Source of the DNA: Longimicrobiales bacterium | GTDB lineage: Bacteria; Gemmatimonadota; Gemmatimonadetes; Longimicrobiales; Gaopeijiaceae | Length of the DNA stretch: 64,000 bases | Direction: 5' to 3' | NCBI GenBank assembly: GCA_963664435.2 | Contig: CAXXKM010000003.1 | Coordinates: 512,001-576,000, forward strand | In this document: positions 39,090-61,693 of the stretch, in pieces | How the letters are laid out: each line of letters starts with the position of its first letter | Position numbering within the stretch: position 1 is the first letter of the stretch | Translations under genes and position numbers: made by a program | Notes under the pieces: model-generated | Databases searched by the model: none | Told to the model about the DNA's origin: nothing | The model's input: the letters and a program-made list of their open reading frames with translations, nothing else

Positions 39090-39149
39090 GCATGGAAGAT
39101 AGCGGCTTCTCCATGCGTTAACCCTGCCACTTATGCGACACTACACTAG
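38010..39149 (-). mobile_element. IS630 family insertion sequence
   Basis: CTAG at both ends; imperfect IRs TAGTGTTGTGCCGC / TAGTGTAGTGTCGC. Confidence 0.95.
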
Positions 39150-45163: not shown

Positions 45164-45996
45164 GACCCGCAACGATACCTGTCGCACTGACGCTTCTGCT
45201 GGCGGCGTTCCCCGCCGCCGCCCAGGAACACAAGTCGGCCAAGCAGCGCGACGAGGAGGCGACGTTCCTTCGCGTGCCCGCCGCCGAGGCCGGCCAGGAC
45301 CACATTTACTCTGTTCGCGCGCGCGTGAGGCACACGACCGTGATCGTGCTCCCGGCATCCGAGAGGATCCTCGACTTCGTGGCCGGCGACTCGGAGTACT
45401 GGCACCTGACGGGCGCGGCCAACGTCGCCTACCTGAAGCCCCTGGCCGAGGACGCGGCGACCAACATCGCGCTCGTCTGCGAGTCGGGCCGCATCTACTC
45501 GTTCCTCGTCGAGGAGCACGGCGACGAACCGCCGCACCTGATCGTCCGGGTCGAGACAGGCGCGGAGGCCGAGCGCATGTCCAGTGCGGGCGCGCCCGCG
45601 TTCGTCGCGCGGAGCGAGGTCGCCGCCTACCGGGAGATGGCCGCCGAGGCCGCCCAGGCGGCGCGCAGAGCGCAGGCGGCGGCGGACGCAGAGATCGAGG
45701 CGTTCCGCGCCTCCTATCCCACCCGGCTTGCGTTCGAGTACCGGCTGGACCGGGACGCGTCGCGGCGTCCGTTCCTCGTCGAGGCGATGTGGCACGACGG
45801 GCAGTTCACCTATCTGCGCTCGCACGCCCAGGAAGCGCCGGCCCTCTACGAGCTGCGGGACGGCGAGCCGAGCCTGGTCGCGTTCGACTTGGGCGAGGAC
45901 GGGCTCTACGTCGCGCGCCGCGTGCTGGGCGACGGGTGGCTCCAGATCGGGGACGAGCGGCTGCGCTGGCGGTTCGAGCCCGCGGATGCGCGATGA
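45160..45996 (+). CDS. VirB9/TrbG
   Basis: Signal peptide, YLKP, WHDGQFTY, APALY. Confidence 0.85.
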   Translation: MRPATIPVALTLLLAAFPAAAQEHKSAKQRDEEATFLRVPAAEAGQDHIYSVRARVRHTTVIVLPASERILDFVAGDSEYWHLTGAANVAYLKPLAEDAATNIALVCESGRIYSFLVEEHGDEPPHLIVRVETGAEAERMSSAGAPAFVARSEVAAYREMAAEAAQAARRAQAAADAEIEAFRASYPTRLAFEYRLDRDASRRPFLVEAMWHDGQFTYLRSHAQEAPALYELRDGEPSLVAFDLGEDGLYVARRVLGDGWLQIGDERLRWRFEPADAR

Positions 45997-47255
45997 GCCG
46001 CTGGAAGCAGTGGATCAAGGAGCCGAAGGGCGCGCTGCCGGGCGGCATCATCACGAAGGCGGGGATCGCGCTGATCGGCGTGCTCATCGCCGGCATGCTG
46101 TTCTCGTCGTCGCTCACGGGTCCCGAGGAGGACCCGATGGCTCCCGCCCCTTTCGAGGCGCAGGCCGTGGACGACCGGGCGGGCCGCTCGTTCGAAGGAC
46201 GGCTGCGCGCCGAGGCGGAGCGCCAAGTCCTGCGGGCTGCGGCCGACGATGCCCGCGCCGACAGCGAACGCCGCCAGGCCGAGGCCGAGACGGCCGGTGC
46301 CGGTGGCGCGCGTGGAGCCGGAGGCGGCGAGCTCGGAGCGGCAGGCACGGAGGATGAAGCGGTCGGGATGGTCCAGGCCGAGTACGAGCTTCGCGAGGCG
46401 CTGCGGCTCGAAGAGATCGAGCGGCGGACGCGCTCGCTCCGCTCGCTGCCCGTTGCCCGGACCTACAGGGACCCGAACGAAGCGCGGGACCCAACCCGCA
46501 CGTCGGCGGCCGAGCCCGAGGCGCCCGAGGCGGCGCTCGATGCAATGCTCGCGTCCTTCGGACAGTCGGTCGCCGCCTTGGAGGCCGAGATGCAGGCCGG
46601 GATGGCGGCCGAGGGGCTCCTGTCCGGCTCGCCGGAAGCTGCGCCGCAGGGAACTCGCGTCCCCGGCACGGCGGACCCGACCCTCAGTGTCCGGCCGCTG
46701 GACCCGCCGGGCTGGGAGCGGATCCGCGAGGGCTCGTTCCTCGAAGCCGTGTTGCTCACCCAACTCTCGGGCGAGTTCCCCGGACCCGTGCTCGCGATGG
46801 TGTCGGTGCCGCTGTATTCGGCCGACCGCCAGCGGGTCCTCGTTCCACGCGGCGCGCGCGTCGTGGGCACCGCCCGGGCCGTGCAGGACCGCGACCAGAG
46901 CCGCCTGGCGGTCGCGTTCCACCGGCTGCTGATGCCGGACGAAAGCTGGATCGACCTCGAGTTCGCGGGGCTGAACCAGGCGGGCGAGGGCGCGCTCAAG
47001 GACCGGGTGAGCCGCCACTACTTCTCGACGTTCGCGGCCGCGGGCGCCATCGGCGCGCTCAGCGGACTCACGCTGGCCGGAGCCTCACCCTACGGCCTTC
47101 GGGCCGGCGTCGGCCAGGGGCTCGGAGGGAGCGCCACCTCCGTCCTCGACCGGTTCCTGAACCGGATGCCCGAGATCACGATCCGCGCCGGCCACCGGCT
47201 CCGCATCTGGTTCACCGCCGATGCCCTCATTCCCACCCCCGACCCACACCAATGA
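45993..47255 (+). CDS. VirB10/TrbI
   Basis: N-terminal TM; EGSFLEAVL, VPRGARVVG, PEITIRAG. Confidence 0.85.
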   Translation: MSRWKQWIKEPKGALPGGIITKAGIALIGVLIAGMLFSSSLTGPEEDPMAPAPFEAQAVDDRAGRSFEGRLRAEAERQVLRAAADDARADSERRQAEAETAGAGGARGAGGGELGAAGTEDEAVGMVQAEYELREALRLEEIERRTRSLRSLPVARTYRDPNEARDPTRTSAAEPEAPEAALDAMLASFGQSVAALEAEMQAGMAAEGLLSGSPEAAPQGTRVPGTADPTLSVRPLDPPGWERIREGSFLEAVLLTQLSGEFPGPVLAMVSVPLYSADRQRVLVPRGARVVGTARAVQDRDQSRLAVAFHRLLMPDESWIDLEFAGLNQAGEGALKDRVSRHYFSTFAAAGAIGALSGLTLAGASPYGLRAGVGQGLGGSATSVLDRFLNRMPEITIRAGHRLRIWFTADALIPTPDPHQ

Positions 47256-47901
47256 CACGAAAGGACTCTCCCATGCTTCACCGCATCCTCGCCCCCGCCG
47301 TTTTCCTTGCGCTGTTCACCCTTGCGAGCCCCAGGCCCGCGAGCGCCCAGTTTGACTTCGGCAGCTGGGTCCAGCGCGCCACGATCATCGCGAATCAGAT
47401 CAGGCAGATCTCGAACCAGGTCAGCCAGATCCGGTCGATGGCCCGCCAGCTCACCGAGCTCGAGGACCAGCTCGACCACATGGAGCGCGCCGCGCGCGGC
47501 GAGATCGACGCGCTGCTCGCGCCGTTCTCCCGGCTCGCCGCCGAGCCCGTGGGACTGGTGCGCGACGGACTCTCCTGGAGCGCGGACTTCCAGGGCGCGG
47601 CACGACAGACGGTCGATGCCGTTCGGGGCATGGGAACCGGCGGCCGCTCGTTCACCGGACTCTGGCAAAGCGCGAGAAGCACGGCCGACCGGGTGTCGGA
47701 AGCCGATGTCGTCGCGCTGTTCCGCGACTTGCCGCCTGGAGCCGCCACGCGGGCGGCCGAAGACTACCGCCGTGCCCGCGAAGCCGCCGACCGGCAGCGG
47801 GTGCTCGACTACGCGACGCTCGACGCGGCGTCCGCGCTCGCCGAGACCATCGAGAGCGCGCAGGGCTCGTTCGCCGGACTGACCGCGAACGGCAACCTGT
47901 C
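47252..47901 (+). pseudogene. VirB5/TrbJ-like protein, 5' part (split by the IME)
   Basis: Signal peptide, NQI.QI.NQ pattern; host-like coding ends at ANGNLS. Confidence 0.75.
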
Positions 47902-48162
47902 AAGAGAGCACCTAAGTCGTTGTGCCCATTGGACCATTGGCTCGCAGGCTTCTGAGATGCCCCCAGAGTTGCCCCAATCGTGCAGTTGCTTCCAACAACC
48001 CCCGTCAGCACGGCTCGTTGCCCTTCCGGTGCTGGGCGCGTCCGCAGAGCCCGTCACCGAAGCTGGCGAGGGCCAACCGGGTTCTCGTGTTCACCCCGAG
48101 CACTACGGGACCGACGCCCGGATGATTCCGGGATTTACCACTGAGAGAAGGAGGACGGAGCG

Positions 48163-48399
48163 ATGACGAGTGTGATCGAACAGAAGAGGCAGGGGCAAGT
48201 GCGCTTTCTGCGGCTGCCGGAGGTGCTGGCCCGCACGGGCCTGTCGCGGAGCACGGTCTATGTACGGCTGGACGAGGGGCGCTTCCCCCGGCCGGTCTCG
48301 CTGGGCGGGCGCGCTGTCGGCTGGATCGAGTCGGAAGTGGACGAGTGGATCAGGGAGCGGATCGACGAGAGCCGCGTCAGAGACCAGCGGCCAGGTTGA
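48163..48399 (+). CDS. AlpA family excisionase/regulator
   Basis: RFLRLPEVLARTGLSRSTVY..GRFP..GWIESEV. Confidence 0.9.
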   Translation: MTSVIEQKRQGQVRFLRLPEVLARTGLSRSTVYVRLDEGRFPRPVSLGGRAVGWIESEVDEWIRERIDESRVRDQRPG

Positions 48400-48474
48400 T
48401 CGCCGCCGCTCCGTATCCTATCCTCCCCGTTCTCGAACCGTCTAGGCTGTTACCAACCGGAATGGAGACTACTA

Positions 48475-50226
48475 TTGGCCCGATTCACGGACGCGGAACT
48501 CATCCTGAGGGTCGCCGAGCACTGGAAAACGCGATGCCTCCTGGACGGGGAATCGCTCTTCACTCAGCGATCACTCTGGACACGCGAGAACTTCGAGGAA
48601 TTCCGCCAATTGTATGTGGACCGTCCTCTCGTCGGCCAGGAGTCGTTCCTATGGAAGCTGGAGCAACAGCTAGCCCCAGGCTCAAAGAGGATCGCGTGCC
48701 TTTGGGCGGAGATGGACTGGCTATACAGGCTCATCGTGAGCCGTTCCGCACAGGGACCCGAGAAGAAGCGCGACAGCATTCGCCACATCTGGCAGTGGTC
48801 GGGCGAGGATTTCCCAGAGAAACACGACCTACTCAGCGATCGAGTGCTGGGGGGCGGAGTGCTACGTCCGGGCAGGGCATTCTATAGTCTCGCATGGAAG
48901 GAGTACCACTTCTTTGGACTCGCCATGCAGGATTGGTTCTCGCAGAATCTTGGCCGTACCGGGCTGGCGAACGAGCCCTGGGAGTTCGCGTCGTGGCTGG
49001 ATTCTACGGAAGCCGCGGGCAAACGCGCATTCCGGCACGCGCTGCTCTTCCTGCTCTTCCCCGACGAGTTTGAACCGATCGTCTCAAGCAGCGGCAAAGA
49101 GAAGATCGCAAAGAGACTCCCTCTCGGAGAAGCGTTCAAGACTCCTAATCTGGTGGCCGTGGATCGAGCCCTGCTCCAGATCCGGCGACACCTCGAAACC
49201 GAATACCCCGATATTCCGAAGGAGGAGATTCACTTCTACAAGTCTCCGGTCAAGGAACTCTGGGACCCGCCAGAGCCGAAGCCACCCCCACCACCTCCTC
49301 CGCCTCCTCCGCCTCCTGAGGAAAACGGGGATGACTCGAACGGGAAATACGGTATCGCGGACGCCCACCAAGACCTCTTCATTCCCCTTGACGACCTGGA
49401 ACGCCTCCTTGCTTCCATCAAGTTCCGCAAGAATCTCATCCTCCAAGGTCCCCCCGGGACCGGAAAGACCTTCATCGCTAACCGGATCGCCTGGTGCCTC
49501 GCCGGCCGAAGGGATGATGATCCCATCGAGATGATCCAGTTCCACCAGTCCTACGCATACGAGGATTTCGTCGAAGGCTTCAGGCCCAACAACGAGGGGA
49601 GCTTCGATCTGAAGCCGGGCGTCTTCCAGCGCTTCTGCGAACGCGCGCGAGCCAACCAGGAAACCCCTCACGTCTTCATCATCGACGAGATCAACCGCGG
49701 CAACCTCTCCCGGATCTTCGGCGAACTGCTCATGCTGATCGAGCGCGACAAGCGGAGCGAGAAGTACGCCGTCGCAATGACCTATTCGGAGAAGCGGTTC
49801 TACGTGCCCCCAAACGTCTTCATCCTCGGGATGATGAACACCGCCGACCGGTCCCTGGCTCTGGTCGACTACGCGCTTCGCAGACGATTCGCGTTTGAGA
49901 CGCTGGAACCGGCTTACCGAACCGACTACGGCAGGACGGCGTTCACAGAGTATCTCGTCGAAGAAATGGGCGCGGATCCCGAGCTGGTCGTCCGCATCTC
50001 CGAACGGATGGCCGATCTCAACGAGGCGATTCGCCACGACAAGGAACTCGGCCCCGGCTTCGAGATCGGCCACAGCTACTTCGTTCCCGACGACGGTGAC
50101 GAGCCCTCGGAGGAATGGTACATGCGTGTTGTGAACACTCAGATCGTTCCGCTTCTGCGTGAGTACTGGTTCGACGTGCCGGAGCGTGTCGAGAAGGCTG
50201 TGGCGAGTCTTACCGGCAACGCCTGA
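48475..50226 (+). CDS. mcrB: McrB-like AAA+ GTPase
   Basis: GPPGTGKT, QFHQSYAYEDF, IIDEINRGN, MNTADRS, IGHSYF. Confidence 0.9.
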   Translation: MARFTDAELILRVAEHWKTRCLLDGESLFTQRSLWTRENFEEFRQLYVDRPLVGQESFLWKLEQQLAPGSKRIACLWAEMDWLYRLIVSRSAQGPEKKRDSIRHIWQWSGEDFPEKHDLLSDRVLGGGVLRPGRAFYSLAWKEYHFFGLAMQDWFSQNLGRTGLANEPWEFASWLDSTEAAGKRAFRHALLFLLFPDEFEPIVSSSGKEKIAKRLPLGEAFKTPNLVAVDRALLQIRRHLETEYPDIPKEEIHFYKSPVKELWDPPEPKPPPPPPPPPPPPEENGDDSNGKYGIADAHQDLFIPLDDLERLLASIKFRKNLILQGPPGTGKTFIANRIAWCLAGRRDDDPIEMIQFHQSYAYEDFVEGFRPNNEGSFDLKPGVFQRFCERARANQETPHVFIIDEINRGNLSRIFGELLMLIERDKRSEKYAVAMTYSEKRFYVPPNVFILGMMNTADRSLALVDYALRRRFAFETLEPAYRTDYGRTAFTEYLVEEMGADPELVVRISERMADLNEAIRHDKELGPGFEIGHSYFVPDDGDEPSEEWYMRVVNTQIVPLLREYWFDVPERVEKAVASLTGNA

Positions 50227-50229
50227 GCG

Positions 50230-51309
50230 TTGAAGAACATCCCGATCCTCAACGTCTACTACCTCCTCTGCTATGCTTGGGGACGCGTTCAGGAGCGGGA
50301 CACCACACGCCTAGCCTCTCTGGGAGACCTTTCGACGGTCCAGGACCTCCTCGGCAAGGTGCTCGCGCACGGCGTCAATCACCTCTTCCGGCGCGGCATC
50401 GACCGGGGGTACGTGGATCGACGGGAGGATCTCGCTGGAATCCGCGGCAAGCTGGCCGTCAGTGAAACGGCGAAGCGTGCGTTGCGGTTGCACGGCCGGG
50501 CCGCCTGCGACTTCGAGGAGCTATCGGTGGACATCCTGCCGAACCAGATCCTGCGCACGTCGTTACATGGGCTGCGGGACCGGAGGATCAGGCTCGACCG
50601 CACCGTGCGCGGCGAGGTCAACTCCGCGTACCGAAGGCTCGATGGCGTGTCACGGATCCACCTGAAGAGGAACACCTTCGGCCAGGTCCAGTTCGGCGGA
50701 AACCGCCGTCTATACCAATTCCTCCTCTCCGCGTGCAGGCTGCTCTACGAGAGTTCCCTCGTGGACGAGACCACCGGTCGTGCCGTGTTCCGTGACTTCC
50801 GCCGTGACGAGGCCATCATGTGGGCGCTGTTCGAAGAATTCGTCGCGGGATTCTACGAGCGCGAGCAGCGTGTTTACCGGGTGAATCCAAGGGGTGGACG
50901 TCGAATCGAGTGGGCGGACGCCTACGCTGAGGACGACACCAACTGGCGACGAATCCCCGCCATGACTGCCGATGTGGTCCTAGAATCGGCCCAGCGTCGG
51001 ATCATCCTGGACGCGAAGTACTACAAGGACGCGCTGTCGTCCGGACGCGGTTCAGGGATCGGCAAGCTGAAGTCCGAAAACCTGTACCAGCTGCTCGCGT
51101 ATCTGCGGAACCGGCAGGCAACGGGGCCGCAGGGAGCTGGGCACGATGGCATCCTTCTATATCCCCAGGTGGGCAACGAACCGCTTAGGGCAAAGATCCG
51201 CCTCGAAGGCTTCTGGATCCAAGCCCGGACCGTCAACCTCAACCAAAACTGGCGCCGGATTCACAACGAGATGCTGGAGACCATTGGGCTATCGGGTCCC
51301 GAATCATAG
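50230..51309 (+). CDS. mcrC: McrC-like nuclease
   Basis: IPILNVYYLLCYAW, LFEEFV, IILDAKYY, LYQLLAY, GILLYP. Confidence 0.9.
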   Translation: MKNIPILNVYYLLCYAWGRVQERDTTRLASLGDLSTVQDLLGKVLAHGVNHLFRRGIDRGYVDRREDLAGIRGKLAVSETAKRALRLHGRAACDFEELSVDILPNQILRTSLHGLRDRRIRLDRTVRGEVNSAYRRLDGVSRIHLKRNTFGQVQFGGNRRLYQFLLSACRLLYESSLVDETTGRAVFRDFRRDEAIMWALFEEFVAGFYEREQRVYRVNPRGGRRIEWADAYAEDDTNWRRIPAMTADVVLESAQRRIILDAKYYKDALSSGRGSGIGKLKSENLYQLLAYLRNRQATGPQGAGHDGILLYPQVGNEPLRAKIRLEGFWIQARTVNLNQNWRRIHNEMLETIGLSGPES

Positions 51310-51425
51310 CACGCGTATCGGCGAGCGCGGCATGCTACCGCAGTGGGTAGGGTGGTTCAATGCCGCTCGACGTTCGCGCCCAGCGACTCGCCTCCTAGCC
51401 GACTTCCCGAACCGTCACCCCGCAG

Positions 51426-52304
51426 TCACGAGGAGTCCGAAACAGCAAAACGCGCTTCCGATACGATGGTGTCATAGCGCTCGACGAACTCGGCGAACTT
51501 GTCCCGGTCGCGGTTGTACGACCGCAGCCAATTCTCGATCCCCTTAGACAGTACAGTGATCACGAGCCTCGCGACGTGGAGCACCTTCATACCATCGACC
51601 AAGGGTGGAGTATCACGGTCGGGGTGCGTGAACCGCGGCAGGAGCCTGTGTGTTCGCCCCGACCGCACCTTGCGTGAATCGAGGTTGGTCATGTGGATCA
51701 GCGAGTTCCTGAGTTGCCACAGTTCGTCCGGCGTCACCCCAACCTCCCCGAGATTACAGTAGTCATCCAGCCACTTGGTGAAGCAGTTGCCGCGAATCGG
51801 GCCGTACTCGACGTACCCCAAGGTATCGATCGCGGAGAATACCAGCTTCAGGCAGGACACGTACTTTCTGTTGTTCCACAGCAGGTGGATCGCGTCGAAG
51901 TAGTCGTCTTGGATGAGCTGCGGAAAGTCGAAGCCGTTCTCGGTGAAATAGACCTGTAGGTAATCGGGCACCGCGCCGCTGCTCGACACGTCGCGGGTCT
52001 CGTCCACATGAACCTCTCCGTTCACGATGTGTGTGACACAGTAGACGGAGTTCTCATCCACGATGCCCTTGGCGGCGAGCGCCCCCGCGAACGGATTCAG
52101 GCGATCCATGGCTTCGAATTCACGCAGCAGAATCGGCTTCGCCAGATCCTCGCGTCGCGCGCGCCGATGGTCGCGCCGCACCCTCGACTGCAGGAAGTTC
52201 GTCAGTTCCTCGTAGCTCCCAGCCTTCTCGTACACGCGCCAGCCGACGGCGTGGACGTGCTTTCCATCCCCGTACAGGAAGATGTTGACGAGCGATTCCC
52301 TCAC
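51426..52304 (-). CDS. Hypothetical protein with HEPN-like C-terminal domain
   Basis: Helical domain with LRNSLIH (RxxxxH). Confidence 0.55.
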   Translation of the reverse strand: MRESLVNIFLYGDGKHVHAVGWRVYEKAGSYEELTNFLQSRVRRDHRRARREDLAKPILLREFEAMDRLNPFAGALAAKGIVDENSVYCVTHIVNGEVHVDETRDVSSSGAVPDYLQVYFTENGFDFPQLIQDDYFDAIHLLWNNRKYVSCLKLVFSAIDTLGYVEYGPIRGNCFTKWLDDYCNLGEVGVTPDELWQLRNSLIHMTNLDSRKVRSGRTHRLLPRFTHPDRDTPPLVDGMKVLHVARLVITVLSKGIENWLRSYNRDRDKFAEFVERYDTIVSEARFAVSDSS

Positions 52305-52387
52305 TGGTTAGAGCTTCCCTTCTACCGATGGCTGGTTGCTGAGGTCGAATGTTGCTGGCCTCCCGCAAGGTTGCGGGAAAACGGCGG

Positions 52388-53905
52388 TTACAGAAGCTCT
52401 AGCTGGCCCCCCGCGCAGCTGTGTTCGCGCAACAAGACCAGCGCCCTCTCATCGGCACCTAGCTCCTGAGCGACCGCGTGTAGGTCTAGGCGACTGAGTA
52501 GCCCCACCGTGATCGGTCGCTTGGAGTCCCAGAACGTGAAAGCGCACAGCAGCTCCTGGGCAGGCTCAGAACGCAGCAAATCACGTACGCAATCCGCTTC
52601 AGCCTTCGACCCGCAGGGCACGAAGTAGCAGGTGTCGTCCAGAACAATTGGCTTGCCCTCGAAGGACCCGACCGTGCGAAATTCGAGCTTCTTGTAGAAG
52701 CCAGAGATGGCAACGCGCCACGGTGCGAACGTGTAGGGCCCCACGCCGAAAACCGAGAACCGAGCTCGGTTCCGATAGATCGTGCTACCGCGACGGTCGA
52801 GGCGGTCGGCATGCGCGCATAGGTACCTCCAAGTCCGGGGAGCTTCAGACTCGATGCGATTGGTGTCATCCCCAATCGTCGACTGAGTCACCAGCATCCA
52901 TCGCGTCGGTTCGGCCACAGCACCATTCGCCACTTCGGAACTCTTCAGCATCGGAAACAGGAACCGGGGCTCAAGCTGCACCTGCTCTTGGAAGCCATTC
53001 ACGTAGGAGTCCGGGCCGCGTCGGCGCAGTTCCATGACCTTCGAGCAATCGTGCTTCACACCAGAGCGCCACCGGAATCGGTGCGGCCCTGCTAAGTGCT
53101 TCCACCTTTCGTAGAGCTCCAGTTCCGCCACGAGTTCTCCATCCCGGAGCCCGAATCGCGACGACGGCGCGGCAGCCTCAAGGGTATCGTACACGGCACA
53201 CTCGACTTCTCCACGCCGAGGAGAACCCGAGACCATGAACAAGCACGCCTCAACCGATGCTCCAAAATGCTTGTTGGCATCGATACGACGCACCTCCGCA
53301 TTCCTAAGCCGGTGTCCATGGCTCCACGCATGACGCAGGACCCGGCGAACCACCGCAACCTTGCAGAGGATGGCGAGGCTCGCTTCGTGCCCTTCGATCC
53401 AATCCAAGGCGCGCAGGAGCATCCACTCCGAAATGTCGAAGTTGCCCTTGCCCGTAAGGGCGTCGAGCCCGCGGTGACCCCGGAAGTTCGTCTTTTTCGG
53501 GAGATTCGAGCTTCCGAGGCGGCTGAGGTCTGCGCTCGTCACCCACGGTGGATTCCCGAGAACCAGTATTGGTCTCGGGAGCCCTAGGAGTACTTCGTCC
53601 CAATCTGTCCGGAAAAAATCGGCTTGGCGTACCTGAGCATCGGCATCCGGATAGGACCTGCGGAGGAGGTCCTTGGCCCTAGCCACATACTGGGGATTGA
53701 TCTCGAAGCCGAGTAGCCGTCGCGCCGACGGAAACGCCCGAATCGCAGCATCCAGAAAGGTCCCCGTTCCGCATGTTGGCTCAAGGACGCTGGCTGGACG
53801 AAGGCCACGGTCGACCAGAAGGGCACACACGCGGTTCGCCAGTGGCCGCGGCGTCTGAAAGTCGCCGAACTCGGCCTTGATTCTGGGCTTGGTCCTAGAG
53901 CGCAG
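52388..53905 (-). CDS. Type II amino-DNA methyltransferase (NspV-like by recollection)
   Basis: EFGDFQTP, LEPTCGTG, LGNPPW; probable CTG start. Confidence 0.85.
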   Translation of the reverse strand: MRSRTKPRIKAEFGDFQTPRPLANRVCALLVDRGLRPASVLEPTCGTGTFLDAAIRAFPSARRLLGFEINPQYVARAKDLLRRSYPDADAQVRQADFFRTDWDEVLLGLPRPILVLGNPPWVTSADLSRLGSSNLPKKTNFRGHRGLDALTGKGNFDISEWMLLRALDWIEGHEASLAILCKVAVVRRVLRHAWSHGHRLRNAEVRRIDANKHFGASVEACLFMVSGSPRRGEVECAVYDTLEAAAPSSRFGLRDGELVAELELYERWKHLAGPHRFRWRSGVKHDCSKVMELRRRGPDSYVNGFQEQVQLEPRFLFPMLKSSEVANGAVAEPTRWMLVTQSTIGDDTNRIESEAPRTWRYLCAHADRLDRRGSTIYRNRARFSVFGVGPYTFAPWRVAISGFYKKLEFRTVGSFEGKPIVLDDTCYFVPCGSKAEADCVRDLLRSEPAQELLCAFTFWDSKRPITVGLLSRLDLHAVAQELGADERALVLLREHSCAGGQLELL

Positions 53906-53909
53906 GGGA

Positions 53910-54566
53910 TCACCTCACTCGCAAGATGCCGTCAACAGCACCGGCTTCGGTGATCGCGCGACGATACTGCAGCCGCCACTGCAGGGCGTTCGAGATCGTC
54001 AGGTATCCGATGTCGGGAGGATTCGCGAGGACTTCTTCCGCGAGACGGTTCGCCTCGATCTCCTCCACAGGAAGCAACCGCTCCTCGAAGAAGGCGAGGA
54101 GGTCGTCCACGTTGCCGCTGTTCTCGACGATCCGGCGGATACCCGTGGTAGTCTGGAAGTCCGCAGTTCGCTCGGCGGTTACGTAGATCGTGTGAAGAAT
54201 GTTGAGCCGGGCGGTGTGAGTCTCCTCATCATCCGTCTTGTCGTAGACGAAGACGAGCAGCGAGTAGCCGAGGCCATACAGCTTCTGGCGCGCCGACTTG
54301 TAGGGACAGGACGACTGGGGTTGCTTGTGACTCGTGACCTTGAGGTCCACGCCGAGCCCCGGGAGGTCGATTCCTTTCGCCGAACTTCCCTCCTGGTAGA
54401 CGTACCTGCGGTGAAGGTCCTCCTGAAACTTGTGTTCCAGGTAGGTCCCGACGGCCTTGCCGTCCGTTACTCCGAACAACGACGGTTCTCGGTGCTCCGA
54501 TTCCGTCTCAGCGAAGGCGCGGGCTGCTCGGCAGAGCAGATCAATGGTCAGTTCACGTTTGCTCAG
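53910..54566 (-). CDS. Type II restriction endonuclease (NspV-like by recollection)
   Basis: TDGKAVGT, GIDLP..VDLKVTS, QPQSSCP, SNALQWRLQY; probable CTG start after AAGGAG. Confidence 0.75.
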   Translation of the reverse strand: MSKRELTIDLLCRAARAFAETESEHREPSLFGVTDGKAVGTYLEHKFQEDLHRRYVYQEGSSAKGIDLPGLGVDLKVTSHKQPQSSCPYKSARQKLYGLGYSLLVFVYDKTDDEETHTARLNILHTIYVTAERTADFQTTTGIRRIVENSGNVDDLLAFFEERLLPVEEIEANRLAEEVLANPPDIGYLTISNALQWRLQYRRAITEAGAVDGILRVR

Positions 54567-55024
54567 AACAGCTCCTTCGCTCGGGCCTTCGTGGGCGTAG
54601 CGTGTCGGCTTCTGTGGACGAGACAGAACCATGCCCCAAACGATACTGGCTTTGCGCGGCGGACGGAAGCTCATCCGCGGGGGGTTCCGAACCAGCGCGC
54701 TATCTACCGAGGTTGGCGCGAGGTGCTTCCGCCTCGACCAGACGGGGTGGACTGAAGACGCCCAGCGGCATCGGGCGGTACTTGGACTATCCCTGATTGG
54801 CCGCGACCAAACCGGGCAACGGCTAAGCCTCATCGGTGGCCTTCGGAGGGGCGACGGAGGTGCCGCTGGCGGAGGTCGATCCGGGTCCAGGACGACGCTG
54901 GATCCCTTGGGATTCCGGCTCGATTCACGGTGTTGACACCGGCCGAGCGGGGCTTCTCCGTATACGGTATGGAGACTCCGAAGACCCGGAATTGCCGCCG
55001 ATGGGGGCTGGCTCACGCCCTTAA

Positions 55025-55065
55025 GGTGCGTAAGCCAGCATACCCCCGGTATAACCGGGGGGCTG
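55025..55065 (-). other. oriT with ColE1-like nic site
   Basis: Minus strand GTATGCTGG^CTTA (ColE1: GTATACTGG^CTTA) next to the IR CCCCCGGT-ATA-ACCGGGGG, upstream of mobC. Confidence 0.75.
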
Positions 55066-55164
55066 GCGAGGGGCTTTGCCCCTTCGATCCCCAACAGACC
55101 CGCGCTCCGGTGGATTGCGCGGGCGGGGGCGTCGCCGCCCGTCCCCCCGTGGCGGCGCTGCCCG

Positions 55165-55503
55165 ATGGCTAGACGCCGCCCGGTCATCGTCGCCGTCCGC
55201 CTCACGCCGGAGGAGTCCGCCGACTGGCGGGCCAAGGCGGCGGCTGCCGGTGTGCCGCTGTCGGCGCTGCTGCGGCGGGCAATGGCGCGCACCCGGACAT
55301 GGACCGCCCCGGCGGCCGAAATCGAGCGCGAGCGTACCCGGCAGGTCTCCCGCATCGGGAACAACCTCAACCAGATCGCCCGGTGGGCGAATACCCACAA
55401 GGGGGCGGCTGAGGCCGTCGAGATCATCGCCCGGCTGGTCGCCATCGAACGGGCGCTCCGGGCGCTGGATCCGAACGAGAACCCCGAGGCCGATGCTCGT
55501 TAA
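55165..55503 (+). CDS. mobC: MobC/MbeC relaxosome accessory protein
   Basis: RHH N-terminus, RIGNNLNQIAR. Confidence 0.9.
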   Translation: MARRRPVIVAVRLTPEESADWRAKAAAAGVPLSALLRRAMARTRTWTAPAAEIERERTRQVSRIGNNLNQIARWANTHKGAAEAVEIIARLVAIERALRALDPNENPEADAR

Positions 55504-57058
55504 GTTTCTCGCCCGCGGGACCGGCTCGGCAGCGGCGGCGGCCGACTACCTCCTCGGCGAGCGGGACGCTGCCGGGGAGCCGCGCGAAGGCGTCGAGTTG
55601 TTGCGGGGAGATCCCCACCAAGTGGCTGCGATGGCCGACGCGCTGGAGTTCAAGCACAAATACTCCTCGGGCGTGATCGCCTGGGCACCCGACGACCATC
55701 CCACCGACGAGCAGATCAGTGCGGTGCTCGATGAGTTCGAGCGGACGGCTTGGGCAGGACTCGAACGCGATCGCTACGCCTGGGCGGCTGTGCTGCACCG
55801 CGAACGTGGTGGCGGCGCGCACGTCCACGTCCTCGCCGCACGGTGCGACCTCGAGACCGGGCGGAGCCTCAACATCGCGCCGCCCGGATGGGAGAAGACC
55901 TTCGGCCCCCTCCGCGACGCCTTTAACCACGAACACGGCTGGAGTCGGCCTGACGACCCCGCGCGGGCCAGGGTCCAGCAACCCGGCCACCGCGCCTACA
56001 TCGAGGCGGCGCGGCTGAGGACCGGCCTCGCCTTGGAGTCCCAGCCCCGCGACCTGATCCGGGACTACCTGCTCCAGCGTGTGGAGCACGGGACGGTGCA
56101 GAACCGGGCCGATGTTGTCGCGGCGCTGAAGGATGCGGGTCTCGAAGTGCCGCGCGAGGGCAAGGACTACCTGACCGCGCTGGACCCCGAGACCGGGGAC
56201 CGATGGCGGCTGAAAGGAGAACTCTATGGAGAGAACTTCGAGCGCGAGCGATTTGACCGACCGGCTGCGGAAGCGGCTGGAGAGCGAACGCAGGGAGATC
56301 GAGGAGTTGACCGCGAGCGAGCTCGGGCGGCTCGGCGAGAACTCGCGGCGCGTCGCGAGGAACGCGCTGCGTACAATCGAGCGCGATACGGAGGAGGCGA
56401 CCGGGCGGATGCGCGAGTTGCTGGCAAAGGCGTGGCAACGGCCCCTGATCGTCGGCCTGAGCCTTTGGATCGGTTTCTTCGGCGGAAGCTGGGCGACGAT
56501 GCGCTGGTTGGCGGGGAGCATCCAAGCCCGGATCGAGACCCGCGCCGAACTGGGCCGGGACATCGAGGACGCCCGGCGGACGCTGGCTCAACTGGAGGTG
56601 GACACCTGGGGGCTCGTGTTCCACGAGATCAAGGGCGAGCGGTTCGTGGTGGTGCCGGACGGGGTGCTGGCCCGTCCGCCCTGGTGGGTGGACGACCGTC
56701 CGGCGTTGAAGCTGTCGAACGAGTGAAGGAGGTCTATGACCGCGTTAGAGGAGCAGTTGACGAGGGCCTTGCGGAGGTTGTCCGCGCAGTTCGAGACGGC
56801 ACAGCGGCGGCAATCCGGGCAGGTCGAAGCCTTGCGGCGGCGCGTCGAGCGGCAAAGCGGGGAGAACGAAGCCTTGCGGCAGCGCGTCGAGCGGCTGAGC
56901 GCGGAGAACGAAGCCTTGCAGCGGCAAATCGAGCGGCTCGACGTGCTGGCGACACGCTTGGCCGAGTATTCCGGGACATCCGGCGCCGCGAGACCGCGCG
57001 GCCTCCGTATCTGATGCGCCGTCCGGGACCGGATCGGGATCAGGGTCCGAGCCGCTGA
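55493..57058 (+). CDS. MbeA-like MOB_P relaxase
   Basis: MLVKF..RGTG..DYLL, YSSGVI, VLHRE..HVH, SLNIAPPGW. Confidence 0.85.
   Translation: MLVKFLARGTGSAAAAADYLLGERDAAGEPREGVELLRGDPHQVAAMADALEFKHKYSSGVIAWAPDDHPTDEQISAVLDEFERTAWAGLERDRYAWAAVLHRERGGGAHVHVLAARCDLETGRSLNIAPPGWEKTFGPLRDAFNHEHGWSRPDDPARARVQQPGHRAYIEAARLRTGLALESQPRDLIRDYLLQRVEHGTVQNRADVVAALKDAGLEVPREGKDYLTALDPETGDRWRLKGELYGENFERERFDRPAAEAAGERTQGDRGVDRERARAARRELAARREERAAYNRARYGGGDRADARVAGKGVATAPDRRPEPLDRFLRRKLGDDALVGGEHPSPDRDPRRTGPGHRGRPADAGSTGGGHLGARVPRDQGRAVRGGAGRGAGPSALVGGRPSGVEAVERVKEVYDRVRGAVDEGLAEVVRAVRDGTAAAIRAGRSLAAARRAAKRGERSLAAARRAAERGERSLAAANRAARRAGDTLGRVFRDIRRRETARPPYLMRRPGPDRDQGPSR
56226..56726 (+). CDS. MbeB-like protein nested in the relaxase ORF (alternative frame)
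   Basis: AAAGGAG RBS; coiled coil plus TM; ColE1-like position. Confidence 0.65.
   Translation: MERTSSASDLTDRLRKRLESERREIEELTASELGRLGENSRRVARNALRTIERDTEEATGRMRELLAKAWQRPLIVGLSLWIGFFGGSWATMRWLAGSIQARIETRAELGRDIEDARRTLAQLEVDTWGLVFHEIKGERFVVVPDGVLARPPWWVDDRPALKLSNE
56736..57014 (+). CDS. MbeD/MobD-like protein nested in the relaxase ORF
   Basis: AAGGAGG RBS; MTALEEQLTRAL resembles the MbeD N-terminus; coiled coil. Confidence 0.7.
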   Translation: MTALEEQLTRALRRLSAQFETAQRRQSGQVEALRRRVERQSGENEALRQRVERLSAENEALQRQIERLDVLATRLAEYSGTSGAARPRGLRI

Positions 57059-57070
57059 CGGCCTCGGCGG

Positions 57071-57916
57071 CTAATCGCGATTGCCGGACGCCTGGCTCGA
57101 TCCGCCCGTCTGGAAGATTCGCCACACCCGACCGCCCGACGCAGCAACGTGGACTAACAACGCTGCCAAGAAGCTCCCGTATCCCCGCACGCGCACCCAC
57201 CGTGCCTTCCCCCTGCGATTCGCATCCAAGGCCTCGCAATACTCGATATGCAAGTCACTGAGTAGCGGGTCGTAGATTTGCTCGTAGGACTTCTTGGAGA
57301 ACACGAACTCGGCGAAGCCGCGCAGTGACGAACCTACCGGCCGTCGGACTTTGCGGCGACTCGCCAACCGCCCGAGCCAGTTCGTAGCGGTTTGCCCGAC
57401 TTTTCTTAGTCGCCGTCCACGCTGATCGCGCCCCCGCGCCTTTTCTGCGTGAGCGATCACGCGTTCCCCAGCATATCCGACGCGGAGGTCCAGAGCGTCT
57501 ACCCTGATCGCTTGGATGGCTCTATGAAAGGCCAAGCTGGAGGCGTTCCAGGCCTCCAGCGTCCGGCGAGCGTTCTCCTCCGCTCTTCGGATTCCTTCCA
57601 TCATGGGAGAGCAGTCGAGCGCCCTCAGCATCCGGCGAGCGTTCTCCTCCGCTCTTCGGATTCCTTCCATCATGGGAGAGCGGTCGAGCGCCCTCAGCGT
57701 CCGGCGAGCGTCCTCCTCCGCTCTTCGGATTCCTTCCATCATGGGAGAGCAGTCGAGCGCCCTCAGCGTCCGGCGAGCGTTCTCCTCCGCTTTTCGGATT
57801 CCTTCCAGCGGGGGAGAGCAGTCGAGCGCCTTCTGCGCCCGGCGAATGCTCTCCATCGCGGTGCTCGCCGCCTCTATCTGCCGCCGAAGCTCGGAGGGGT
57901 CGTGGAAGCCGTTCAT
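57071..57916 (-). CDS. PadR-coupled hypothetical protein with four 23-aa repeats
   Basis: ATGA overlap with padR; repeats ALDCSPMMEGIRRAEENARRTLR. Confidence 0.7.
   Translation of the reverse strand: MNGFHDPSELRRQIEAASTAMESIRRAQKALDCSPPLEGIRKAEENARRTLRALDCSPMMEGIRRAEEDARRTLRALDRSPMMEGIRRAEENARRMLRALDCSPMMEGIRRAEENARRTLEAWNASSLAFHRAIQAIRVDALDLRVGYAGERVIAHAEKARGRDQRGRRLRKVGQTATNWLGRLASRRKVRRPVGSSLRGFAEFVFSKKSYEQIYDPLLSDLHIEYCEALDANRRGKARWVRVRGYGSFLAALLVHVAASGGRVWRIFQTGGSSQASGNRD
57557..57830. repeat. 4 x 69-bp in-frame tandem repeat
   Basis: Units start at 57557, 57626, 57695, 57764. Confidence 0.9.
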
Positions 57917-58209
57917 GCCGTGCTCCAGGTGAGGGCGGCGACCTCCCGCATCCGCTCCCAAACGGTAAGGATGCGCTTGCCGTGCCCGGTGGCCTGATAG
58001 ACTCTCCGCGCGACTCCGCCCTCGGGTGCGTTCTCCAGGTGGGACTCGACGTAGCCCTTCTCCGCCATCCGGCCCAGGGTGACGTAGACCGTGCCGCGCT
58101 TCAATTCGTCGCTCGCACGGATCATCTCCAGGCCATACATGCTGCCCTGGTTCACAAGGAGGTCGAGGATGACCGCCTCCTTCGTCGACAACCTCGGCAT
58201 ATCTTCCAT
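57913..58209 (-). CDS. PadR family regulator
   Basis: MYGLE, GTVYVTL.RM..KGYV, RRVY..TG.G. Confidence 0.85.
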   Translation of the reverse strand: MEDMPRLSTKEAVILDLLVNQGSMYGLEMIRASDELKRGTVYVTLGRMAEKGYVESHLENAPEGGVARRVYQATGHGKRILTVWERMREVAALTWSTA

Positions 58210-58326
58210 GCACCTATCTTACATGATGTAAGACTTCCCCGCAAGATCCCGAGCGGGATGGAGGGTATCACCCCCCCGACGGACCCGAGTAACTTAGCCG
58301 CCGAAAACACCCGGCTGACGCTACGA

Positions 58327-59547
58327 TTACCGTGAACGGCTCAGGACTCCGGGCTCGATCTTCCCGGCCCGAAGCCGGTCCAGATAGTTGGCCCAAGCCT
58401 GCATCATCACGCGCCGCTCGGGCAGGAACGCCGTCCGGTTGTAGGCCCGACCGTTGGGATCCCTGACGGCGTGGGCCAACTGGTGCTCGATGAAGTCGGG
58501 CCGGAAGCCCAGCACCTCGTCCAGAATCGTGCGCGCCATCGCCCGGAACCCGTGCATCGTCATGCGCTCCTTCGGGATGTCCAACGCCCGGAACGCGCTC
58601 CAGAGCGTGCCACGGCTCATCGGCAGTTCGCGGTAGGGAAACCGCGCGTTCGGGAAGACGTAGCGGTGGTGCCCTGTCATGGGATGGACCTCCCGCAGGA
58701 TCGCGACCGCCTGCCGCGCCAAGGGCACCACATGCGGCCTGCCGGTCTTCGTCACCGTGTAGCGCCACTCGGCCCCCTCGATGTCGATGTCGTCCCACTG
58801 CGCCGTGACCAACTCGCCGAGGCGCACGAACACCAGTGGCGCGAGACGGAGCGCGCACCGAACGGGAAGCGTTCCGGAATAGGTGTCCAACTGCCGGAGC
58901 AACGGACCGACCTCCCTCGGGTCCGTGATCGCCGCGAAGTGCTTCGTCTTGACGGGCGGCAGCGCCCCGCGCAGATCCGCCGACACGTCCCGCTCCGCAC
59001 GTCCCGTCGCCACCGCGTAGCGTAGCACCCGCCCGCAGACCTGGAAGACGGTGTGCGCCTTCCTCAGATGGCCGCGCGCCTCGACGCGGCGAACCACGGC
59101 CAGCAGGTCCGGCGCGGTGATGTCCGCGACCGGACGAGCGCCGAAGTAGGGGAAGGCTTCCCGCTCCAGCTCGCGCTCAAGCCGCCGAACCCAGCCAGTG
59201 GACCAGTTGGGCGAGTGCTTGGTCAGCCATTCGGTCGCCACGGCCTCGAAACTGTTCCTGGCCCCTTGCCGCCGGGACTGCTTTCGGGCCTTCCGGTAGG
59301 CGCTCGGGTCGACGTCCCGTGCCAGCAGCTTGCGGGCCTCGTCCCTGCGCTGCCGCGCGAGCTTCAGCGAGACCTCGGGATAGATCCCCATCGAGATCCG
59401 CTTCTCCTTGCCCGCGAAACGGTACTTGAAGCGCCAAGCCTTGGTGCCGCGCGGGGCGATTTCGAGGTAGAGGCCGCGGCTGTCGTAGAGCTTGCGGGGT
59501 TTCTCGCGAGGCTTGGCCTTGCGGATGGCGGTGGCTGTCAGTGGCAT
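58327..59547 (-). CDS. P4-like tyrosine integrase
   Basis: N-terminal arm-binding domain (GLYL..WRFKY..G.YPEVSL..AR), VRLGE, HGFR, QLAH, AYNR. Confidence 0.95.
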   Translation of the reverse strand: MPLTATAIRKAKPREKPRKLYDSRGLYLEIAPRGTKAWRFKYRFAGKEKRISMGIYPEVSLKLARQRRDEARKLLARDVDPSAYRKARKQSRRQGARNSFEAVATEWLTKHSPNWSTGWVRRLERELEREAFPYFGARPVADITAPDLLAVVRRVEARGHLRKAHTVFQVCGRVLRYAVATGRAERDVSADLRGALPPVKTKHFAAITDPREVGPLLRQLDTYSGTLPVRCALRLAPLVFVRLGELVTAQWDDIDIEGAEWRYTVTKTGRPHVVPLARQAVAILREVHPMTGHHRYVFPNARFPYRELPMSRGTLWSAFRALDIPKERMTMHGFRAMARTILDEVLGFRPDFIEHQLAHAVRDPNGRAYNRTAFLPERRVMMQAWANYLDRLRAGKIEPGVLSRSR

Positions 59548-59720
59548 GTTGGGGCATCCTGTAAGCGCTGCGGAGATATGCCCCCAAAAGATGCCCCAAT
59601 AATCACCGGGATGTCAAGAAGTGAGAGGGAATCGCTCTGGAGGTGGTATGTCTCGTAATTCCTTTGCTCACAACACTTATTGGGACTTCTGAGAACGTCC
59701 CTGAACGTCAATCGACAGAA

Positions 59721-60014
59721 AACGGCAATCTGTCCAACACCGCTCTGCAGCAGGCCGGCGTCGCGGCCGCGCTGAGCCAGGGCCGGATCAACGCGGGCGT
59801 GGCCCAGGTGCTCGCCCAGCAGGCCGCCCGGGAGGCGAGCCGCGCGCAGTTGGCCGAACTCGCGCGGCTCGAACAACTCGCCGCGTGGAGCGAGAGCCGG
59901 GCGCGCGCCAACGCGATGGCGGGCACGCTTCGCGACGCGGCTTCCCGGAACCGGGGCGCGCTCCGCGACGGGCTGCTCTTGCGTGTCCCGTCGTTCTACA
60001 CGGGCGGCAACTAG
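59721..60014 (+). pseudogene. VirB5/TrbJ-like protein, 3' part
   Basis: NGNLSNTALQQAG... continues the 5' part in frame. Confidence 0.75.
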
Positions 60015-60026
60015 GGGGCGTTCGCG

Positions 60027-61004
60027 ATGCAGCAGTCGATCGATCCGAACGTACCCACGCAGATCCCTGACGATCAGCTCCAGGACTTCAAGAGCTTCCT
60101 GGACGTGGTGCTCGACACCGTGGTCGGCGGCGCGGCGCCCGACGTGCACACGCTCGGGCTCCAGCTCTGGGGCGGGCTCGCCGCCGTCATGGTCGCCTGG
60201 ACGGGCCTCAAGATCGCCTTCAGCGGCACGTTCCAGCCCTGGGAGATCGTCAAGCTCGTGATCGGGATCGCCATCCCCCGCACGCTGCTCCACTACTACA
60301 TCGTGCCGATCCCGGGCGTCGGGCTCACGTTCCCGGCCACCATCGCGGCTGGAGGCGCCTGGCTCCAGAACCTGTTCCTGTCCGACGTGGTGTCGGCAGG
60401 CTACACGGAGATGGCGGCGCTCGTGCAGGCGTACTCCGCGCACCTGAGCGCCGCCTGGTCGGGCGGGAACCTGCTCTCGATCGTCACTGCGGGCGTGACC
60501 GTGATCTTCTCCTCGCTGGTCTCGCTCTGCATGGGCGCGTCGCTCGTGGTCTGCCTGCTCGCGCTGTTCTGCATCACCTACGCGCAGGTGATCTGGGCGC
60601 AGGTCGCGATCGCCATCGCGATCCTGCTCGGCCCCGTGTTCATCGCGTTCCTGCTCTTCGAGCCGCTCTCGTTCCTGTTCTGGGGATGGTTCAGGACGCT
60701 GATGGTCTACACGCTCTACGGCGTCGTGGCCGGCGCCGTGCTCCGCGTCTTCATGGGCGTCGGGCTCGGCTACATCACGACCTACGCCGACGCCCTCATG
60801 GGCACCGGCACCGCCGACGCGGGCGAGCTCTGGCTCTGGGCCGTCGTCCTCATGCCGCTCGTCGTCTCGGGCCTCTGGGCCGGGCTCAAGGTCGGCGAAC
60901 TCGCCTCGATGCTGGTCTCCGGCTCCGGCTCCGCCGGGTCCGGGTTCGTCGCGCTCGTCATGCAGGGCGCCAGCAAGGCCGCCGTCCCCGCGAAGCCCGT
61001 CTAA
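60027..61004 (+). CDS. VirB6/TrbL
   Basis: Polytopic membrane protein, LLGPVFIAF..F.GW. Confidence 0.85.
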   Translation: MQQSIDPNVPTQIPDDQLQDFKSFLDVVLDTVVGGAAPDVHTLGLQLWGGLAAVMVAWTGLKIAFSGTFQPWEIVKLVIGIAIPRTLLHYYIVPIPGVGLTFPATIAAGGAWLQNLFLSDVVSAGYTEMAALVQAYSAHLSAAWSGGNLLSIVTAGVTVIFSSLVSLCMGASLVVCLLALFCITYAQVIWAQVAIAIAILLGPVFIAFLLFEPLSFLFWGWFRTLMVYTLYGVVAGAVLRVFMGVGLGYITTYADALMGTGTADAGELWLWAVVLMPLVVSGLWAGLKVGELASMLVSGSGSAGSGFVALVMQGASKAAVPAKPV

Positions 61005-61024
61005 GACATGAGGAGATCCTGGTA

Positions 61025-61693
61025 ATGAAACGAGACAGGAACGCCGGCCGCGAGTACGCCGAGATATGGGGCGAGGTGGTGCAGGCGAACCGGAAGCTGC
61101 GGACGATCCTGATCTTCCTCTCCGCGAGCTGCGTCCTCGGCGTGTTCGTCCTGCTGCGCATCGCGGGCACCGAGCCGCCCAAGCCCATCGTGGTGCGGGT
61201 CGACGAGGTCGGGCGCGCCGAGGCGCTCGCCTACGAGGCCGCCACCGCCCAGGCCGATCCGCTCGATCCCACGACCAAGTACTTCCTGAACCGGTTCGTC
61301 AACGACTTCCACTCGCGCCGCCGCGTGACCGTCCAGGAGTACTGGACCCGGAGCCTCCGGTTCCTGTCGACCGAACTCGCGAACGCCGCGTTCGCCAGCG
61401 ACGGTGACGAGGTCGCGAGCGTGGCGGCCGGCACGGCCGAGACCGAACGCCAGGTCGAGCGGGTCGTGCTCCGCATCCATCCCTCGCCCGAGCCGCTGCA
61501 CGGCGCCACGGCCGACTTCGAGGTCGTGCATCTCGCGGCCGGACAGGAGGTCCTGCGCGAGCGCTGGTCCGTCGCGCTCCGGTTCGAGTTCCTCGACTCG
61601 ATCCCGCCCGAGCTGGTCGTCCACAACCCCATGGGCATCCTCATCACCTACCTCCAGGCCGACCGGGCGCTGGTGACGGGGGAGGAGCGATGA
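61025..61693 (+). CDS. VirB8/TrbF
   Basis: TM then PIVVRVDEVG; C-terminal NPMGI. Confidence 0.85.
   Translation: MKRDRNAGREYAEIWGEVVQANRKLRTILIFLSASCVLGVFVLLRIAGTEPPKPIVVRVDEVGRAEALAYEAATAQADPLDPTTKYFLNRFVNDFHSRRRVTVQEYWTRSLRFLSTELANAAFASDGDEVASVAAGTAETERQVERVVLRIHPSPEPLHGATADFEVVHLAAGQEVLRERWSVALRFEFLDSIPPELVVHNPMGILITYLQADRALVTGEER

Follow-up and report, generated by a model that had tools for sequence, protein, structure and literature searches.

The analyzed stretch of DNA, referred to as the window, comprises 64,000 nt of the genome of a Longimicrobiales bacterium (Gemmatimonadota; assembly GCA_963664435.2, contig CAXXKM010000003.1; G000:C3:512001-576000). It contains the transfer operon of an integrative and conjugative element (ICE) encoding a type IV secretion system (T4SS), and within this operon an integrative mobilizable element (IME) of 11,833 bp was observed. 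The IME features a GC content of 64%, compared with 71–72% in its flanks, and is inserted precisely into a conserved T4SS gene, which it splits in frame. In an initial interpretation deduced from the sequence alone (first-pass annotation), the element had been described as a site-specifically inserted IME whose excision rebuilds the gene, and the junctions and intact alleles presented in the following support this description.

The 14-bp att core, AACGGCAAYCTGTC, occurs in the window solely at positions 47888 and 59721 (two matches, allowing for up to one mismatch). In shuffled sequences a mean of 0.06 matches was obtained, and none of 100 shuffles reached two. Both copies of the core are in frame with the interrupted gene, and joining of the flanks results in a stop-free frame of 309 codons, as had been proposed before; the likely start codon, however, is the ATG at position 47273, reducing the predicted ~309-aa protein to 302 amino acids (aa). 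A sibling ICE copy of the same genome (G000:C3:1162386-1163312) possesses the intact 309-aa gene, with the 30 nt on either side of the core being identical to the IME flanks. Due to this exact match, the empty site is considered real. The attB sequence suggested in the first-pass annotation for verification of excision would also detect this intact allele. Furthermore, the two ends of a relative at a secondary site (L068) have just the 7 bp AACGGCA in common, and these were assigned as the strand-exchange overlap because the ends share nothing else. The predicted inverted arms of attP and the arm-type repeats at both ends were likewise recovered: core-type arms form an inverted repeat matching at 6/9 positions, and TGCCCC arm-type sites are located at +67/+79 and -132/-145 (direct) and at -173 (inverted) relative to the overlap. 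In all 12 relatives checked, the TGCCCC pair on the integrase side occupies positions 31-32 and 44-45 ahead of the integrase gene.

In a genome scan, 144 relatives of the IME integrase were retrieved and 79 loci were kept, among which 35 loci are at least 77% identical. Records of the latter are almost all labeled Longimicrobiales, Gemmatimonadota or Ca. Palauibacter, and two of the eight best-holding sequencing runs are labeled sponge metagenome. Among loci with integrases of at least 88% identity, 7/10 adjoin the 3' half of the interrupted gene at the same codon. Recurrent targeting of the NGNLS codons by homologous integrases, for which a check had been recommended, was hence observed, and a chance secondary insertion is rejected on the same count. 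These junctions show that the conserved NGNLS codons in the VirB5/TrbJ-like gene serve the P4-like integrase as attB. A class-wide draw of 251 genomes, which overlaps the first locus set and includes related and therefore non-independent genomes, yielded 14 integrase matches in 13 genomes. Twelve of these reside at the target loci of the clade described below, with seven, counting the IME studied here, at the virB5 site, three at an oriT-like motif and two in a membrane open reading frame (ORF); the other two are secondary insertions. Moreover, 15 truncated members of the VirB5-like family were obtained from a library of 50% clusters, showing an attL junction in seven and an attR junction in three cases. 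Complete elements at the virB5 site measure ~8.7, 8.9, 14.3, 14.6, 18.1 and 71 kb and are located in diverged host alleles; their relaxases are 63–90% identical and their cargo differs. Among 32 cargo ORFs from five complete elements, seven match PADLOC models and two are leucine-rich repeat (LRR) proteins. In a metagenome junction scan, one of 43 matches was real (L155, an attR in the same gene), and the lone viral match was attributed to chance. A viral collection contained three distant integrases (29–53% identical). Nested in full within the ~71-kb element (L164 and L165; G333:C2:1257000-1328800) is an ICE whose virB5-like gene is intact; the element represents a parasite now carrying its own helper.

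Targets of the integrase clade were called at the 35 loci by reading the sequence outward from the integrase. Besides the seven loci at the 3' half of the virB5-like gene, six are located in virD4 at about codon 254, four in a membrane ORF (104 aa, near the ICE integrase) and eight at the oriT-like motif. Together the four ICE sites account for 25/35 loci; six loci are off-target within the subclades and four are unassigned. The AlpA-side end was found in 6/8 loci of the motif group; for both virD4 and the membrane ORF it was recovered a single time, in further genomes. Both types of end were seen for all four target sites. In a quick tree of 77 rows (L057, L068 and L098 were excluded as too short, and sequences of helper-embedded phage-inducible chromosomal islands, HE-PICIs, are not among the rows), one clade of 34 rows was recovered with an SH-aLRT value of 100, including virB5, virD4 and membrane-ORF subclades with values of 99 each. 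The motif-targeting group is scattered and not monophyletic. The nearest outgroup, L073, adjoins tRNA-like sequence as judged by eye. The oriT-like motif occurs nine times in genome G000 and was absent from three shuffles; three occurrences precede ICE virD4 genes and six are found at most 3.5 kb away from ICE-type integrases, in neighborhoods lacking a MobA match. This distribution is consistent with an oriT function of the motif. On the basis of these sequence comparisons, the integrase clade of sponge-symbiont Gemmatimonadota is regarded as specialized on one ICE family, in which it uses four target loci. In addition, one locus (L065:9830-20480) combines a virD4-type end at the integrase with a virB5-type end 10 kb away and is hybrid or rearranged, and another (L050:7663-11200) harbors two clade integrases in one ICE, at the motif and in virD4.

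The interrupted gene is located between virB10 and virB6, directly before the latter, and the operon holds no other VirB5 candidate. For the intact allele, TrbJ_Ti (TIGR02780) was the sole match (E 0.0013; 18.2 bits versus a curated cut-off of 100.55). Within a family of 53 members, TrbJ_Ti matches 11 (best 2.1e-8), PRK13874 TrbJ five, PF07996 three, DUF4141 two (1.6e-7) and VirB5 one. Starting from the ATG at 47273, the N-terminus shows a signal-peptide-like hydrophobic stretch ending in ASA, judged by eye. The predicted structure of the intact protein is all-helical (pLDDT, a model confidence score, 72.5) and places the insertion site in the loop that links its two long C-terminal helices (162-212 and 220-297), the last of which is lost upon interruption. 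A Foldseek search with this model gave no match at E <= 0.001, a VIA-align fold search returned generic helical bundles alone (best Z 8.9), the best profile match to PDB sequences had an E of 0.2, and the intact protein found no match in a plasmid collection. Atlas searches yielded unnamed clusters and one cluster with DUF4141 on 16% of its members, at low recognition. A complex prediction for the VirB5-like protein with VirB6 scored 0.16 against a mark of 0.32 and carries no weight either way. No variation at residues N213, L216, S217 and T219 was seen in 60 close homologues. The site codons rank with the most conserved ones of the gene, and the exact 7-bp overlap is retained in 16/26 intact alleles. 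The protein resembles VirB5/TrbJ minor pilins (TIGR02780, PF07996, DUF4141) in its length of ~300 aa, all-helical model, signal-peptide-like N-terminus as judged by eye, position before virB6 and weak family-wide HMM matches, and differs from them in scores far under the curated cut-offs and in the lack of a solved VirB5 among its fold matches. Based on synteny and weak matches to hidden Markov models (HMMs) rather than on structure, the gene probably encodes a remote VirB5/TrbJ. Its earlier naming as virB5 is supported as a probable assignment for a syntenic T4SS gene with weak TrbJ_Ti/DUF4141 matches; all HMM scores remain under the cut-offs.

Table 1. Features of the IME and of the surrounding ICE transfer region (positions refer to the window).
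Feature	Position	Strand	Remarks
ICE helix-turn-helix + AlpA-domain gene, head of transfer operon	41570..42121	+	38/67 residues identical to IME AlpA
ICE virB2, virB3, virB4, virB9, virB10	42118..47255	+	Pfam TrbC, VirB3, CagX, TrbI above cut-off; 818-aa P-loop ATPase
5' half of interrupted VirB5/TrbJ-like gene, codons 1-217	47252..47901	+	likely start 47273
attL core	47888..47901	+	7-bp overlap at 47888-47894
Doubled TGCCCC arm-type site, AlpA-side end	47958..47975	+	
IME AlpA (candidate excisionase/regulator)	48163..48399	+	PF05930 82 bits; 275 nt inside attL, same orientation as ICE operon
McrB-like AAA ATPase + McrC	48475..51309	+	
292-aa ORF	51426..52304	-	no family above cut-off
Type II methyltransferase + type II restriction endonuclease	52388..54698	-	PADLOC MTase_II 1.5e-141, REase_II 3.5e-99; NF052465 above cut-off
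Putative IME oriT hairpin upstream of mobC	55031..55067		conserved in aligned mobC upstream regions; function inferred
ColE1-type mobilization module	55165..57058	+	mobC, MbeA-like relaxase 55493-57058, nested mobB-like ORF 56226-56726, MbeD/MobD 56736-57014
ORF with 69-nt tandem repeats + PadR regulator	57071..58209	-	
P4-like tyrosine integrase	58327..59547	-	Arm-DNA-bind_3, Phage_int_M, Phage_integrase; frame open, catalytic motifs present
TGCCCC arm-type sites, integrase-side end	59551..59597		one inverted, one doubled direct pair
attR core	59721..59734	+	
3' half of interrupted gene, codons 213-309	59721..60014	+	
ICE virB6 + virB8	60027..61693	+	
Conserved 310-aa ICE ORF	61690..62622	+	no family match
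oriT-like motif upstream of virD4	62877..62911	+	target of sister integrase group
ICE virD4 coupling protein	62921..64000	+	runs past window, intact; codon 254 near 63683 = target of other sister subclade

Further features of the element are compiled in Table 1. Defense cargo had been postulated for the IME and was found in the form of McrBC and a type II restriction-modification (RM) system. The IME relaxase matches PF03432 with 29 bits (cut-off 24.6) and MobC scored above its cut-off; no VirB family match was obtained among the 13 element ORFs scanned, and no primase match was present among the element ORFs scanned. The hairpin upstream of mobC is kept in an alignment of 16 sequences (one being a duplicate) and may resemble the ColE1 nic region. 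Accordingly, the earlier statement that the IME encodes a relaxase and lacks a T4SS was confirmed at this level, and the oriT stated along with them corresponds to a conserved hairpin representing a putative oriT. The module shares its gene order, the nested ORFs and matches to MbeA (NF047848, 2e-28) and MbeD with the mbeC-mbeA-mbeB-mbeD module of ColE1, and differs in its MbeA score (99.8 versus a cut-off of 500 bits), a three-histidine motif and its chromosomal integration. The ORF behind the PadR gene contains four 69-nt tandem repeats (window 57552-57896) and has a homologue in other elements of the clade. Moreover, another alpA fragment accompanied by mcrB-mcrC (88% identity to the IME cargo) is located ~7 kb from the intact sibling ICE (L172:4117-7128; G000:C3:1182047-1185151) and is probably the relic of a related IME.

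The helper represents an ICE of mating-pair formation class T (MPF-T) encoding a VirB set, VirB4, VirB11, VirD4 and an integrase, and it is integrated at several sites. Its operon is ordered virB2-3-4-9-10-X-6-8, followed by virD4 and virB11. Four ICE copies are present in genome G000; the other three carry an intact VirB5-like gene, and one of them has all core genes open. Two conserved ICE proteins without family assignment (window 61690-62622; L006:3203-4105) were observed, one of which is probably the ICE relaxase. One relaxase candidate was modeled as a winged helix plus an alpha/beta domain and may resemble MOBC. In elements at the virD4 and membrane-ORF sites, MobA is replaced by homologues of the 61690-62622 protein. 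The host ICE copy carries an IS630 insertion (window 38010-39149) splitting an 859-aa Ig/fn3-repeat gene, and at least nine near-identical copies of IS630 are present in G000. Another sibling ICE copy is interrupted in virB9 by a 3.2-kb island (L003:11320-14520; G000:C1:719318-722520) in which a distinct P4-like integrase of 31% identity is accompanied by an Mrr endonuclease; the same ICE copy has an IS630 directly after its virB5-like gene. Window positions 59721-62900 are 100% identical to the sibling ICE on C3, and the left flank is mostly closer to the C1 copy; this mosaic structure suggests recombination among the ICE copies. Just past the window, beyond the ICE integrase, the Thoeris genes thsA (Macro) and thsB (TIR) were detected (L006:7664-15314); upon inspection, the ORFs that follow resemble a type I RM system. 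The ICE integrase itself is preceded by an inserted lipase gene. Across G000, the same mobC-mobA module is present in ~9 copies and the ICE-type integrase in more than 20, an unusual density of one family of ICEs and hitchers for a single symbiont genome. The window also encodes a transfer-messenger RNA (tmRNA; 9892-10240, minus strand).

The element brings no replacement sequence, and therefore the gene is cut while the IME is integrated and would be rebuilt exactly on excision. In cis, the host ICE copy is unable to make the full-length protein as long as the IME is integrated. The first-pass annotation had gone further and inferred that the channel works solely after excision, which is not supported in this form. 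Intact alleles accompany the interrupted gene in 9/11 genomes: three in G000, none in G014 and G041, three in G042, two in G043, one in G044, eight in G045, four in G046, two in G047 (attL only), one in G333 and at least two in G364. Furthermore, externally added protein can partly rescue a deletion of pKM101 TraC, a VirB5 homologue (bioRxiv 10.1101/2022.07.29.501992). Considering whole cells, the channel is mostly not gated by excision, and for the majority of carriers strict gating is unlikely; an intact allele is missing from two single-contig, 97%-complete genomes. Excision was looked for in assembled contigs alone, in which rare forms are dropped: neither an attP nor a circle junction was present in the 202 loci examined, and no circle appeared among 15 of the 28 joints listed for contigs of four runs. 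The lack of an excised junction neither supports nor refutes activity. Empty-site joints in X1 and X7 were dismissed as excision products, since intact sibling ICEs explain them. In 8/12 AlpA-side ends, alpA lies 263-282 nt inside attL in the orientation of the operon (one start was inferred from alignment). Both this placement of alpA and the AlpA-domain gene heading the ICE operon could couple excision to induction of the ICE. Promoter scans at both element ends found none. The stop of the interrupted gene's 5' half overlaps the alpA ATG here, but such read-through into the start codon was seen in only 1/12 attL ends, and translational coupling between the two was rejected as chance.

AlpA proteins are known to act as excisionases, a role also addressed in the discussion of PMC10111431. 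Based on genome interpretation, an ICE-embedded lifestyle is proposed for the IME as member of an integrase clade specialized on one ICE family, with excision coupled to induction and a conditional dependence of the channel on excision; on balance, this reading is considered the probable one. A target site in an ICE gene would guarantee that a helper, or a helper relic, is present, at low cost to the host cell. Upon induction of the ICE transfer operon, AlpA would be supplied by one of two routes: read-through from virB2-virB10 into the co-oriented alpA close to attL, or expression of the AlpA-domain gene of the ICE itself. The IME would then excise, its MobA relaxase would nick the putative oriT, and the element would exit via VirD4 and the T4SS of the ICE and insert, in the recipient, into the corresponding gene of an ICE there. 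Only where the sole allele is interrupted (2/11 genomes) would the channel strictly depend on excision; elsewhere, sibling ICEs probably supply the VirB5-like protein in trans. Specific targeting is evident at the junctions; induced excision and priority on the channel are proposed. Several results weigh against this proposal, among them the intact alleles in most carriers, the missing circle junctions and the rare read-through into alpA mentioned above. Moreover, the VirB5 identity lies below every curated HMM cut-off, family searches with two candidate ICE relaxases gave no match, elements of the virD4 subclade are flipped so that read-through would reach int and not alpA, and decay or rearrangement is apparent in several relatives (L058, L065, L169). 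Two comparable IMEs of S. suis did not excise in reported tests (PMC7168690).

Part of these results would also be expected if the IME hitchhiked in a safe harbor without regulatory coupling, with conserved multi-copy ICE sequences offering abundant targets harmless to the host, stochastic excision, and also travel in cis whenever a sibling supplies VirB5. The four ICE copies in G000, up to eight intact alleles elsewhere and their presence in 9/11 carriers are in line with such a lifestyle, as are the 6/35 off-target clade loci, a small ORF of unknown need among the targets and the lack of conserved translational coupling to alpA. Three of the four targets (virB5-like gene, virD4 and oriT-like motif), however, are expected to be needed for transfer, alpA is conserved in position and orientation, and two nearly complete genomes possess no intact allele; hitchhiking is regarded as a serious but rather unlikely explanation. 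That the channel never works until the IME has excised, leaving the parasite always ready first, is improbable. The modeled loss of the last helix, the invariant residues at the site and the interrupted allele alone in G014 and G041 would agree with it, whereas three intact alleles in G000, one in an ICE copy with all core genes open, and the partial complementation of pKM101 TraC by added protein speak against it. Least probable is a dead end in which the now immobile insertion is kept for its restriction cargo or for silencing of a costly ICE. The host ICE copy indeed has the IS630 in its Ig/fn3 gene and another insert near the integrase, decayed relatives exist and no circle was seen, but the IME has kept its integrase, alpA and mob genes intact, along with the arms and the two cores. 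Furthermore, 95–97% identical integrases occur in several genera and in a metagenome-assembled genome labeled Pseudomonadales, each with different cargo, which points to recent movement.

The reading of an ICE-embedded IME with induction-coupled excision has precedents. The same model, in which excision restores conjugation, was put forward for serine-integrase IMEs in traG, maff2 and snf2 of streptococcal ICEs and likewise for tyrosine-integrase IMEs in oriT (Coluzzi 2017, PMC5357655). It was repeated by Guedon 2017 (PMC5704250), according to which the traG cases were all untested by then. Named cases include IME_traG, IME_maff2, IME_SNF2, Tn6104 (Tn5252-family ICEs) and IME_oriT (Tn916/ICESt3) (PMC5357655, PMC5704250, PMC7168690). 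Like these streptococcal and clostridial elements, the IME encodes its own relaxase and belongs to a group that site-specifically disrupts conserved transfer genes or oriT of ICEs; both systems include virD4 and oriT (here an oriT-like motif) among their targets. The former reside in Firmicutes, in ICEs of FATA/FA and Tn5252/Tn1549 type, and their gene-targeting serine integrases belong to several families, whereas here one P4-like tyrosine clade uses four loci of a Gram-negative VirB2/3/6/8/9/10 + VirD4 ICE, including a probable mating-pore subunit.

A second precedent is provided by HE-PICIs, for which clade-level tropism for prophage helper genes, AlpA and a doubled attP motif were reported (Tommasini, Mageeney, Williams 2023, PMC10111431). 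In the available text of that work, neither 'conjugat' nor 'relaxase' occurs, and in the accessible part of a 2026 preprint on genomic-island hitchers it is mentioned in the reference list only. Common to both are a P4/PICI-type tyrosine integrase with AlpA, subclades tracking helper-gene targets, the lack of a replacement sequence, some off-target insertions and an attP motif doubled in the same orientation with constant spacing (81/132 bp in HE-PICIs and ~67-79/132-145 bp here), the motif sequence being different. HE-PICIs, in contrast, depend on a prophage helper with late-gene targets, carry a primase and are packaged; the elements studied here target conjugative ICE loci, encode a relaxase, yielded no primase match and have int opposite to the target gene in 3/4 site groups. 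By analogy, the IME appears to work like a streptococcal IME within an ICE and to be built like a helper-embedded satellite, and is a member of neither family. In a literature search with most subscription journals outside its coverage and supplements outside its scope, no described case of a Gram-negative, tyrosine-integrase gene-targeting or virB5/trbJ IME within an ICE was found, nor this ICE family. Already known are the gating idea and the helper-gene tropism of an integrase clade; new are the tyrosine integrases, the Gram-negative MPF-T ICE, the mating-pore gene as target and the repeated retargeting within one clade. As a tentative extension, which is possible yet doubtful in its entirety, the clade may represent the conjugative counterpart of HE-PICIs: it would have left tRNA sites, been retargeted at least four times onto the transfer region of one ICE family (genes of the minor pilin, the coupling protein and a small membrane protein, and oriT), sense induction in cis via transcription into alpA, hold its helper inactive until excised, gain priority on the channel and disseminate restriction systems across several phyla of sponge symbionts.

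The hypothesis of induced excision published in 2017 for IMEs in ICE conjugation genes was based on Firmicutes and, in the papers considered, was proposed, not proven; the corresponding layout is now extended to Gram-negative VirB systems and tyrosine integrases. Moreover, a clade of P4-like integrases has acquired helper-gene tropism for conjugative helpers, as is known for phages. With integrases 80–97% identical, four target cores and shared arm sites, the clade offers a natural panel suited to study the retargeting of specificity, and carriers with and without intact sibling alleles allow for a comparison of gating and hitchhiking. For symbiont genomes, these results also indicate that split T4SS genes do not necessarily represent dead ICEs.

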